Source: a virus. Taken from it: a stretch of 64,000 bases of DNA. The stretch's first letter is position 1; each line of letters begins with the position of its first letter. This document shows, in pieces, positions 50,234 to 52,792 of this stretch. The notes below the pieces were generated by a model. The model saw nothing but the letters and a program-made list of their open reading frames with translations, made no database searches and was not told the origin of the DNA. The stretch lies in the UHGV virus genome UHGV-0164982. The stretch is one strand, 5' to 3'. The position numbers were made by a program, and so were the translations under genes.

Positions 50234-50935
50234 TTATTCTGATTCTCGCTCAAAAAATGAGCTGATAAGGGGAAGCCAATCCTCTGACACTTCGCGAGGT
50301 CGCGGTTTGCCGTGGAAAAAGATTATTCGGCAGTCTTTTGGTAATGCCCCATTCCCCCTGGAGTAACGCGCGCTCGCATATTTTGAACCAGGTTCCACAA
50401 CATCGGCCTTGTAACTTACAAACCATCCTGGATACAGATCCTGAAATGCTGGTGTATCATCGCCCATAACCTTTCGTAAGAACCCCTGGTCACCCCAACA
50501 CTCAGTAGTGACACAACGAGAAATCCAACCTTCCGGATCTTGCCAGAATGCACTCCAGATATGCGCTTTAACACTATTTGGTATCCACAGGGCACCGCTG
50601 CCACGATATTGTGGATGGTAAAAATCCCTAAGCATGGTGAAGCTGGTTGGTGGATGCTCTAGGATTGGGCGTATATCACCGGCAATAACCGTGTCCAAAT
50701 CCAGATAGAACAGATCATCGGTTATATCCGGTCGGAACAACTCGATTTTCGCCCACCAGCCACGGCACTTTTGCCACTGGTTGATCAATGGGACAACTTT
50801 GACGCCAGGTACATGTAAACGCTTCAGGTCTGTCAGGCAAATAATTTCATAGCCTTTTGGCAGTTGATTAACCAGCCACTGCACATCGGAAGCGTTATAG
50901 TCACCACCAGAGCGAAAAACTAAAGCAATCTTCAT
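50234..50935 (-). CDS. putative nucleotide-sugar glycosyltransferase-like protein
   Basis: 233 aa; YLDLDTVI DxD-type motif after a Rossmann-like N-terminus; assignment tentative. Confidence 0.35.
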
Positions 50936-51624
50936 GCTGCACCATCACCTTTCACTTTCATCAATGTCAGGTTTCCGCAAAATACGGCACCAGTGTCGAT
51001 ATACTGCTGATTCCAGAATGTCTTCGGGCTTTTCACCGGAGTGTGACCAAAGATAAAACGATCTGCGCCCGAAATTTCGCCACCAATATCATCCATCGAA
51101 TCACTGATACGCTCGCGCGCCCAGACAACGTTGAAAAGCGGCACCTCCTTACCGAATTGGTATTCATTATCCGGATAGTCGGCATGGGCTATAACGATAG
51201 TTTCTTGCCCGGTGTTCAACTCAATGATATAGGGCAGACGCTTTACCAGCTCCACCAGCGCCCAGGCTAATATTTCCTGATCAGTGTCCAGCATGAAGAA
51301 CCATTGTCCGCCATTCATTAGCCAGTTATTCACGTTGCCATCAGGACTTAACGCATCGAGCATCAACCGCTCATGGTTCCCCATTACTGCCCTGAACCAG
51401 GGCATCTGCAATAGTTCCAGACATTCGACATTTTCAGTACCGCGATCGATAAGGTCGCCGACCGATATCAGTAAATCCTGCGCCGGGTCAAAATCCACAC
51501 GATGGAGTTCGGATATCAGTCTGGTGTAGCAACCATGCAGATCACCAACAACCCAGATATTCCTGTATTTGGTACCGTCGATACGGTGATAAATTGTTGG
51601 TGCCATCATGTATTCTTCAGCCAT
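50932..51624 (-). CDS. ppp: Ser/Thr protein phosphatase (lambda PPase-like metallophosphatase)
   Basis: 230 aa with GDLHGC, GDLIDRG and GNHE metallophosphatase motifs. Confidence 0.85.
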
Positions 51625-52232
51625 TCTTTAAGAGTCACCTGCGGAATACCTCCCATTTTCCCGCATGAAACAACGTCAATCTGTTCACGCGCAGACTGGA
51701 ATAACAAAGGCAGGTGACTTAGATTTTTTGGCGTGCCGCCGGAGTGAACGCGTGGTTCTTGCGTAGCGTCAACGCCCACCAGGGCGACATGTTTGAATCC
51801 GATATGGAAAGCCAGGTTCAGAGCACCATATGAACTATTGCCGCTGGCAATTTCATTCTCATCTTCACAAAGGCCGAAATGTGCGGACCAGCGCCACGCC
51901 CACCACTCGGGAGAATTCGTATTTTTTGGCTCCGTGCCGCGTTCAGCCACACGACGGAAGCACAGAACGCCATCTCTGACTTCACGTTCTTTAACATCGG
52001 GTAGTGCCATGCAATAACAAACACCACGGCGACGGCGGCCACGACCAACGCGCCGCATATTGTCTGGCGATGGATCAAGTGTGAAAAAATAAGAAGCGCG
52101 GTTCAGCCAGTCGATGGCCCCATTGACCGCTATAATAGGCACTCCGCGCGGCGCAACAAAGTTTGCGGCGCTTGGGCCACTGCCGACGATAATAACGCGA
52201 TCACTGCCTCTAAATTTATTCTTGGGAAACAT
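51606..52232 (-). CDS. Rossmann-like GSGPS-motif protein (sialyltransferase/DUF115-like fold candidate)
   Basis: 208 aa; [11 protein letters not shown] then [10 protein letters not shown] resembles the N-terminus of CstII-type transferases. Confidence 0.4.
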
Positions 52233-52792
52233 TGAATTGCACTGCTCCTACTTGCATTCAAAATATGTAAATCTGCGTGTTTTTTGCGGGTATCCAGGAA
52301 CTGCTGTTGCCATTTTGAAATAGACACCTGCGTTGGATTCCGTAGGGCTTGAGGGTGCGCGCCATGCCAATGAAGGCCGTTTTGCAGAGAACAGTCATAG
52401 CCGACTAATACCACTACTTCAGCCCCTGATTCAGCAGCCAAACTGATAGCCTGCGCGCCGCTATTTACCCCTTCCGCCGGTCCACAATATCGCCTGTACT
52501 CCAACGAAAATGATTTCGCCGCCGCCAGGTTGGCTGTCACTTTGCGGAATCTCCCTCCCGGTATGGTGGATCCGTATTGCTTCCACCATGACAAATCACC
52601 GGCGTATAAGGCATAAATGTCATCGAACATCTGCCAGGAATTGTTAACCGCGATGATTGAACAGCCAGTTTTTTCTATAGCAGCACAGTCCTCACGAGTG
52701 AGTGACGGACCGCTACCGACACAAAAAACAGTCCTAGTCGCCCTGGGTGATATGTTCATTCTCAGCTGCAAATTCAGCCTCCAGGCGAGCAT
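52130..52792 (-). CDS. paralogue of the GSGPS-motif protein
   Basis: 220 aa; TVFCVGSGPSLT then IIAVNNSWQMF; ORF overlaps the downstream paralogue by about 100 nt. Confidence 0.4.
   Translation of the reverse strand: MLAWRLNLQLRMNISPRATRTVFCVGSGPSLTREDCAAIEKTGCSIIAVNNSWQMFDDIYALYAGDLSWWKQYGSTIPGGRFRKVTANLAAAKSFSLEYRRYCGPAEGVNSGAQAISLAAESGAEVVVLVGYDCSLQNGLHWHGAHPQALRNPTQVSISKWQQQFLDTRKKHADLHILNASRSSAIQCFPRINLEAVIALLSSAVAQAPQTLLRRAECLL

Follow-up and report, generated by a model that had tools for sequence, protein, structure and literature searches.

The question raised by the locus analysed here is what a group of co-oriented genes of bacteriophage P1, three of them still known under a placeholder name, does for the phage. 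The 64,000-nucleotide stretch under study (UHGV virus genome UHGV-0164982, called the window below when its full length is meant) belongs to a P1-like phage and has 98.8% DNA identity to Escherichia phage P1 over positions 50000–54000; the four open reading frames (ORFs) at 50234–52792, all on the minus strand, correspond to P1 pmgQ, ppp, pmgP and pmgO. P1 is among the most used phages in genetics, yet its pmg genes retain the GenBank name "putative morphogenetic function", while RefSeq relabels PmgO as "alpha-2,3-sialyltransferase" and PmgQ as "glycosyltransferase". We found no literature discussing the function of pmgO, pmgP, pmgQ or ppp. All four are given as non-essential by single-gene deletion ("NE" in a table of PMC10695390 that cites PMC9024508) and in the CRISPR interference (CRISPRi) screen of PMC10695390, and the main text of PMC9024508 does not name them.

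The genes, their rough labels and their non-essentiality are already known. New, as far as our searches show, are the paralogy of PmgO and PmgP, their conserved association with PmgQ, the gene fusions, the exclusion of Ppp from this unit and a hypothesis on the sugar donor and the protein acceptor. The elements of the locus are as follows.

52130–52792, minus strand: pmgO, 220 amino acids (aa), predicted Maf/DUF115/GT42-like single-Rossmann transferase
51606–52232, minus strand: pmgP, 208 aa, distant pmgO paralogue with an insertion of about 35 residues (EP..SPEWWLWRW region) and an Arg-rich patch
52130–52232, minus strand: pmgO/pmgP overlap, 103 nt, with pmgP in the −1 frame relative to pmgO
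50932–51624, minus strand: ppp, Ser/Thr metallophosphatase of the lambda-PP/NinI type, inserted between pmgP and pmgQ in the P1 lineage
50234–50935, minus strand: pmgQ, 233 aa, predicted GT8-like retaining GT-A glycosyltransferase with a DxD motif (D79, D81) and a C-terminal H208-G-x-P-x-P

We propose, as a tentative reading that falls somewhat short of probable, that PmgO, PmgP and PmgQ form a soluble cytoplasmic glycosylation cassette, which would use CMP-activated 3-deoxy-D-manno-octulosonate (CMP-Kdo) and a UDP-hexose as donors and a protein as acceptor during lytic growth.

PmgO and PmgP are distant paralogues, and the PmgO model has a Maf-like fold

The initial annotation had noticed two tandem paralogues with GSGPS and IIAVN motifs. 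Both motifs are present in each protein (FCVGSGPS and CSIIAVNNS in PmgO, IIVGSGPS and VPIIAVNGA in PmgP), IIAVN following GSGPS after about 20 residues. Pairwise BLASTP matches this N-terminal stretch alone (E 0.003). At the level of family profiles, hhalign aligns the two over 165 columns with 98% probability (E 2.6e-13); judged by these profiles, the paralogy is real but old. The conserved core of PmgO covers approximately residues 20–200, with about 20 variable residues at either end. In the PmgP family (644 representatives at 50% clustering, E ≤ 1e-3), N37, D53, N132 S133, G153 D155 and H173 are invariant, and SGPS is nearly so.

The modelled fold of PmgO resembles the flagellin glycosyltransferase Maf, MptE and the sialyltransferase CstI, and is shared with the solved members of Pfam PF01973 (MptE-like/DUF115), namely MptE HPPK and the central domain of Maf. 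It also has the GT-A-variant Rossmann fold with the N-terminal nucleotide-binding G-x-G-P-S loop that characterizes GT42. A fold search in BFVD gave only unnamed or "MptE-like" viral proteins. The family members P0051, a natural O-P fusion, and P0257 pass the PF01973 cut-off of 34.6 bits (44.6 and 44.1 bits, respectively), and many homologues carry a precomputed PF01973 match. The likeness to CstII and DUF115 proteins suggested at the outset thus holds for the fold of the PmgO model; it does not extend to significant GT42 sequence similarity, and the P1 proteins themselves remain below the PF01973 cut-off. Against PDB sequences, the PmgO profile reaches CstII with E 0.12–0.5 in two short motif stretches only, which is not significant, and the PmgP profile gives no match. 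CstI and CstII (GT42, Campylobacter jejuni; profile similarity E 0.12) also differ in possessing a lid domain, no counterpart of comparable size being present in PmgO or PmgP. A faint precomputed match to PF27901 (WaaZ_KDO_III) occurs on P0051; membership of PmgO and PmgP in the WaaZ family was considered and rejected, since hhalign against E. coli K-12 WaaZ gives probabilities of 15% for PmgP and 10% for PmgO. No NCBIfam model matches PmgO, PmgP or PmgQ, and the PADLOC defence-system models gave no matches.

An invariant set of Asp, Ser and Asp residues is found in both proteins (D66/S111/D133 in PmgO, D53/S133/D155 in PmgP), and its Ser-to-Asp spacing matches that in Maf, as judged by motif spacing and partial hidden Markov model (HMM) alignments rather than by superposition. 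Mutagenesis of Maf has shown that E324 and D415 of the M. magneticum enzyme and D272, S334 and D357 of the C. botulinum enzyme are needed for activity. On the basis of the conserved residues and their spacing, both PmgO and PmgP look catalytically competent. Both are basic proteins, and no transmembrane segments are predicted in P1 PmgO, PmgP or PmgQ.

The Maf enzymes of M. magneticum (PDB 5mu5), C. botulinum and G. kaustophilus are flagellin nonulosonic-acid O-glycosyltransferases of approximately 630 residues, with additional N- and C-terminal domains that PmgO and PmgP lack. The multidomain architecture of about 600 residues is absent, and the PmgO match is limited to the central domain (160 of 632 residues). 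Maf works alone on flagellin, whereas PmgO and PmgP are two paralogues that accompany a GT8-like enzyme in phages.

PmgQ is GT8-like, and Ppp is a separate phosphatase

The DxD-motif protein of the initial annotation is PmgQ, in which D79-L-D81-T82 is invariant across 33 homologues. Its model has a GT8-like retaining GT-A fold with the DxD motif and a C-terminal His metal ligand. Searched against PDB sequences, the family profile detects AgtA at E 1.6e-6 and GlyE, a member of GT8, at E 0.0025; the DxD motif and the C-terminal motif line up in these alignments. Compared with the retaining alpha-glycosyltransferases of GT8 and GT77 (LgtC, glycogenin, GlyE, AgtA), PmgQ is smaller, and it matches no Pfam family at E ≤ 0.1, hence not PF01501 (Glyco_transf_8). 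The early structural guesses, to be checked by HMM and structure comparison with GT42, DUF115 and GT-A folds, were therefore correct: PmgO is Maf/MptE/CstI-like and PmgQ is a GT8-like GT-A protein.

Ppp was also correctly recognized as a metallophosphatase (PF00149 Metallophos, 59.1 bits against a cut-off of 21.5, E 1e-15; phrog_246, NinI-like, E 4e-112). Its scores against the NCBIfam PrpA and PrpB equivalogs, including NF008516, are about 272 and 242 bits, below the cut-offs of 326 and 332, so that by these models Ppp is a homologue of the lambda/PrpA/PrpB type and not an equivalog. Its inclusion in the module did not survive. Among 15 non-redundant loci, ppp stands between P and Q only in the window and in one other P1-like locus (L009). 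Because the insertion is limited to P1-like phages, Ppp is not part of the conserved unit; it would be a separate gene that entered the cassette in the P1 lineage.

The trio is conserved, frequently fused and located among phage genes

The pmgO-pmgP sequence is present at ≥95% identity in 579 of 5,426 complete E. coli genomes, nearly always on plasmids, most of which are P1-like, and scanning of viral contigs with the PmgP profile returned near-identical P1 copies only. The diversity of the family was therefore taken from genome, metagenome and representative searches. After removal of P1 duplicates, the loci from reference genomes, metagenomes and phage isolates gave a neighbourhood sample of approximately 17 independent loci, weighted to Proteobacteria, with host taxonomy for a minority of family members.

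P and Q occur together in 13 of the 14 loci with enough flanking sequence, and O and P in 10 of 14. The hosts include Enterobacteriaceae, Zhongshania, Commensalibacter, a Methylophilaceae, Brevundimonas, Sinomicrobium (Bacteroidota) and a Longimicrobiales (Gemmatimonadota); the phage isolates include Escherichia phage EP_H11 as well as jumbo phages of Xanthomonas and Stenotrophomonas. Cluster representatives show at least four fusion architectures (O-P, P-Q, Q-P and Q-P-methyltransferase); methyltransferase-P fusions and a P protein with an additional DUF115-like domain attached were also found. Recurrent neighbours are a Nucleotid_trans-like GT-A protein, a GT1-like protein, and FkbM and class I methyltransferases; a TylF-type sugar O-methyltransferase is fused to Q, and in EP_H11 a GT1-like gene of 322 aa lies between P and Q. 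Judged from gene content, the linkage of O, P and Q, their fusions and the additional enzymes are the signature of a glycan-building cassette, the product of which would vary by phage.

Could the three genes merely be unrelated accessory neighbours without a joint function? Each is individually dispensable and the order varies (O-Q-P in L023, scattered in L011–L015), but the genes occur together in five bacterial classes or phyla and have been fused in no fewer than four independent architectures, which makes this explanation the least probable of those considered.

The cassette is usually embedded in clusters of head, packaging or lysis genes. In a Zhongshania prophage it directly follows the major head gene and precedes the connector and tape-measure genes, and in other contigs it comes after a gene for the major head protein, the large terminase or a Mu-F-like head protein. 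In a C. rodentium lambdoid prophage it is flanked by the lysis cassette on one side and the terminase gene on the other; in contig L003 the lysis genes immediately precede it, and tail and terminase genes come later downstream. In P1 it adjoins the divergent baseplate/tail operon, upstream of pmgR, which is required for P1 head completion.

Two lineages have conspicuous neighbours. In the Xanthomonas jumbo phage XacN1, the gene directly downstream of the cassette (ORF372, L106 8954–12220) encodes a 1088-aa protein with a PKD-like domain and a Thr/Pro-rich tract (53% Ser+Thr over 40 residues), which makes it a candidate O-glycosylation substrate on its composition. In Pseudescherichia and related metagenome-assembled genomes (L011–L015) and in Serratia plymuthica (L005), which has two PmgO copies, O, P and Q are interleaved with genes for Big_1 inverse-autotransporter adhesins; the adhesin has an IAT_beta domain and seven Big_1 domains in 1178 aa, and other Big_1 or RCC1 proteins are present too. 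No nonulosonic-acid or sialic-acid synthesis genes were found in the annotated neighbourhoods.

Proposed donors and acceptor

What the analysis establishes is the folds, the paralogy, the conserved linkage with its fusions and the places of the genes in the genomes; catalytic activity, donors, an O-P complex and the acceptor are deduced. According to our model, PmgO and PmgP probably act as a pair or complex with CMP-Kdo as donor, the sole CMP-activated ulosonic acid common to all hosts. CMP-Kdo appears the most plausible donor because the annotated neighbourhoods lack nonulosonic-acid synthesis genes and CMP-Kdo alone is shared by the hosts. Maf enzymes expressed in E. coli BL21 O-glycosylate Ser and Thr with Kdo from the endogenous pool. 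To our knowledge, E. coli K-12 makes no CMP-sialic acid, and for this reason the RefSeq name "alpha-2,3-sialyltransferase" is probably wrong with respect to the donor. PmgQ would be a Mn2+- and DxD-dependent GT8-type retaining alpha-hexosyltransferase with UDP-glucose or UDP-galactose as donor. The trio, together with the extra glycosyltransferases and sugar O-methyltransferases of other phages, would build a short glycan on the acceptor, as an accessory function that would be dispensable for plaque formation in the laboratory.

For the acceptor, a protein is the likeliest candidate, plausibly one of the virion proteins synthesized in parallel. We favour a protein because the structural neighbours of these enzymes act on proteins, the cassette is placed in virion gene clusters, Thr/Pro-rich and adhesin genes stand beside it, and there is a precedent in mycobacteriophages. 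Che8, Corndog and Myrna decorate capsid and tail-tube proteins with their own glycosyltransferases, which are dispensable for growth (Freeman et al. 2023, as described in PMC12363180 and PMC10877033). That system is likewise phage-encoded and dispensable, and pmgOPQ-type cassettes are also found among head and tail genes; it differs in that the hosts are actinobacterial, the enzymes are not described as Maf-like, and virion glycosylation by the pmg cassette is hypothetical. A more specific version of our model, in which P1 is the founding example of a widespread protein O-glycosylation in Gram-negative phages, with a Maf-like heteromer placing Kdo, drawn from the LPS precursors of the host, on Ser/Thr of virion proteins or others specified by the phage and the GT8 enzyme extending it, is possible but doubtful.

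It should be noted that several observations weigh against the proposed model. The P1 proteins score 23.7 (PmgO) and 20.3 bits (PmgP) against PF01973, below its cut-off, and MptE and thiamine pyrophosphokinases, which are kinases and not glycosyltransferases, score nearly as well by fold. The O-P complex is deduced from the fusions and the gene overlap alone. No Ser/Thr-rich acceptor is encoded in the window, where the richest 40-residue stretch has 32% Ser+Thr, and in the published P1 virion proteome (PMC9024508) we found no mention of glycosylation. Unrelated accessory "moron" genes typically occupy positions beside head or lysis genes as well, and the neighbouring adhesin genes and the Thr/Pro-tract gene are each confined to one lineage. 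Neither the induction of the P1 genes already at 10 min nor the location of the cassette among small unannotated genes in the T5-sized EP_H11 points to virion proteins.

The main rival acceptor is the lipopolysaccharide (LPS) core. The cassette could extend the LPS inner core, lipid A-Kdo2 or another lipid-linked glycan with Kdo and hexose during lytic growth, so that the core receptor of P1 would be truncated or masked, with less superinfection, less loss of progeny to debris or a weaker outer membrane at lysis. The LPS inner-core KdoIII transferase WaaZ belongs to the same PF01973 superfamily as PmgO and PmgP and uses the donor that we propose for them, LgtC-type GT8 enzymes build LPS cores, all hosts are diderm, and the cassette abuts lysis genes. 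WaaZ, however, is chromosomal and encoded in the waa cluster, whereas the pmg genes are phage-borne: all loci with enough flanking sequence look phage-derived, and none is in a chromosomal LPS cluster. The direct hhalign probabilities for WaaZ (15% and 10%) are low, the genes are repressed in lysogens, which does not fit classical lysogenic conversion, and LPS made within one lytic cycle presumably cannot replace that already on the surface. No plaquing phenotype is seen in PMC10695390 and PMC9024508. On balance, we consider an LPS acceptor unlikely, though it deserves to be taken seriously.

The similarity of fold to MptE and thiamine pyrophosphokinases raises the alternative that PmgO and PmgP are diphosphokinases of this kind (or SteA-like) that activate a small molecule with ATP, PmgQ acting on the product. 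This fits poorly with the partner genes, and we regard it as improbable.

Glycosylation of phage DNA as a protection against restriction is very improbable. Ordinary restriction enzymes are in everyday use for cutting and mapping P1 DNA, which counts against such a modification. DNA-hypermodifying phage glycosyltransferases are indeed widespread, PmgO and PmgP are basic, and the C. rodentium prophage has a C5-cytosine methylase gene 5 kb upstream. The alpha- and beta-glucosyltransferases of T4 and the 5mYOX-associated enzymes are, as proposed for the pmg trio, phage sugar transferases of lytic growth. They belong, however, to other fold subfamilies (JGT/TarP-like GT-A or T4 beta-GT-like GT-B), are linked to 5mYOX/TET or thymidylate-synthase-type hydroxymethylases and require a hydroxymethylpyrimidine pathway that is absent at pmg-type loci; no such hydroxymethylase was found among the annotated neighbours. 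In PMC9024508, P1 pmg knockouts show no antirestriction change. Of the sugar-transfer module on DNA or a surface target that was first envisaged, the glycosyltransferase-type folds thus support the module, while DNA as its target is unlikely given the enzyme subfamilies and the unchanged antirestriction.

The overlap between pmgO and pmgP

The overlap of about 100 nt between the paralogues, described as unusual in the initial annotation, is genuine. The only in-frame PmgP start codon upstream of the GSGPS motif is the ATG at 52232, so the overlap cannot be removed by reassigning the start. Family alignments show that the conserved C-terminal segment of PmgO is encoded opposite the variable N-terminus of PmgP, and the variable last residues of PmgO (about 20, of low model confidence) opposite the conserved GSGPS..IIAVN region of PmgP. 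In relatives, P is in the −1 frame every time and the overlaps measure between 7 and about 94 nt, lengths of about 40–94 nt being recurrent. By this comparison the two genes are a tightly coupled pair, and the long overlap in P1 is an extension specific to its lineage.

The long overlap leads to gene-calling errors elsewhere: PmgP is truncated in C. rodentium prophages and missing from the annotation of EP_H11. In the former (L006 10510–11130), the PmgP homologue is called from 10600, which drops GSGPS; the ORF from 10510 regains the motif and overlaps the PmgO homologue by 94 nt. In EP_H11 (OP688485), the PmgP homologue at L105 7001–7636 is absent from the GenBank annotation, probably because of its overlap with the PmgO homologue.

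Within the overlap, a canonical X_XXY_YYZ heptamer, A_AAT_TTA (52217–52211, minus strand), leads from pmgO into the pmgP frame, and a −1 shift there would yield an O-P fusion resembling P0051. Programmed frameshifting was set aside as an explanation, since the heptamer is not kept in a 72%-identical Pantoea relative and the last helix of PmgO would be lost; no stimulatory structure is evident near the heptamer.

Transcriptional control and neighbouring genes

The genes upstream of pmgO and the control elements transferred from the P1 annotation are the following.

52734–52889, minus strand: pmgN, 51 aa, phrog_2350 with no assigned function; its 3' end shares 59 nt with the annotated start of pmgO
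52956–53534, minus strand: pmgM, VRR-NUC nuclease-like, an upstream operon gene outside the conserved cassette
53537–53782, minus strand: pmgL, DksA-like zinc finger, an upstream operon gene outside the conserved cassette
53840–53856, plus strand: C1 operator Op82/O26 (AF234172), upstream of pmgL in the divergent pmgL/gene 26 promoter region
53871–53889, minus strand: late promoter LPpmgL, adjoining Op82 (locus L001 7872–7890; window position = locus position + 45999)
52933–52949, plus strand: weak C1 operator Op83/Oppp, directly upstream of pmgN-pmgO, beside the predicted promoter PpmgN
50216–50232, minus strand: C1 operator Op86a, three mismatches, just downstream of pmgQ, controlling pmgR-pmgS
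50167–50183, plus strand: C1 operator Op86b, three mismatches, just downstream of pmgQ, controlling pmgR-pmgS

We scanned the whole window with the 17-bp C1 consensus, allowing up to three mismatches, and observed 15 matches against 0.38 expected by chance. The operator-like site noticed at 53840 has two mismatches to the consensus ATTGCTCTAATAAATTT and equals the annotated Op82/O26. Op83, with the sequence TATGTACTAATTAATTT, has five mismatches, and a promoter-like site is located nearby at 52981–52953. Elsewhere in the window, a perfect C1 site at 63892–63908 is overlapped by a second one at 63881–63897.

The description of the locus as a C1-repressed early module is therefore only partly adequate. 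The C1 operators are present, but the operon is not purely early, because the late promoter LPpmgL is annotated beside Op82. In the P1vir transcriptome, pmgQ is among the genes already induced by 10 min. Just behind pmgS (48622–48650, minus strand) there is a strong terminator-like hairpin with an 11-bp stem and a T-run after it; in the stretch from pmgL to pmgS nothing comparable was found. This distribution suggests that pmgL-pmgS may be one long transcription unit with internal C1-controlled promoters.

PmgM matches the PHROG family of Holliday junction resolvases (E 5e-27), and, from their sequence matches, neither PmgM nor PmgL has a morphogenetic look. In the pmgN/pmgO overlap (52734–52792), the first residues of PmgO, about 20, are variable and modelled with low confidence, and most PmgO homologues begin near its residue 17–24; the true pmgO start may accordingly be Met12 (52759). 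In PMC10695390, pmgN is scored as essential by CRISPRi but not by deletion, which may be a polar effect.

For the product of pap (48091–48597), annotated as an acid phosphatase, the match is to PF25109 (E 2e-11), which represents the HAD phosphatase domain of polynucleotide kinase-phosphatase, and the PHROG label is "polynucleotide kinase". Ppp has an additional weak match to bacterial Pnkp (TIGR04075). From these matches, Pap and Ppp could act on nucleic-acid ends rather than on proteins.

Significance

The analysis turns three orphan genes into one testable hypothesis, that of a conserved and often fused glycan-building unit, which ranges from enterobacterial prophages to jumbo phages and Bacteroidota. 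With either acceptor, the RefSeq label "alpha-2,3-sialyltransferase" is probably misleading as to the donor sugar. If the acceptor is LPS, the cassette would represent a receptor-remodelling strategy of the lytic phase. If it is a virion protein, glycosylation would have to be considered for Gram-negative phages; in mycobacteriophages, virion glycosylation affects antibody recognition, according to PMC12363180. Should Kdo be O-linked to such a protein, P1 virions would be glycosylated, which the literature searched does not report for P1 or its relatives, and the cassette would provide a natural case of Ser/Thr-O-Kdo, a linkage known until now only from heterologous expression of Maf in E. coli.

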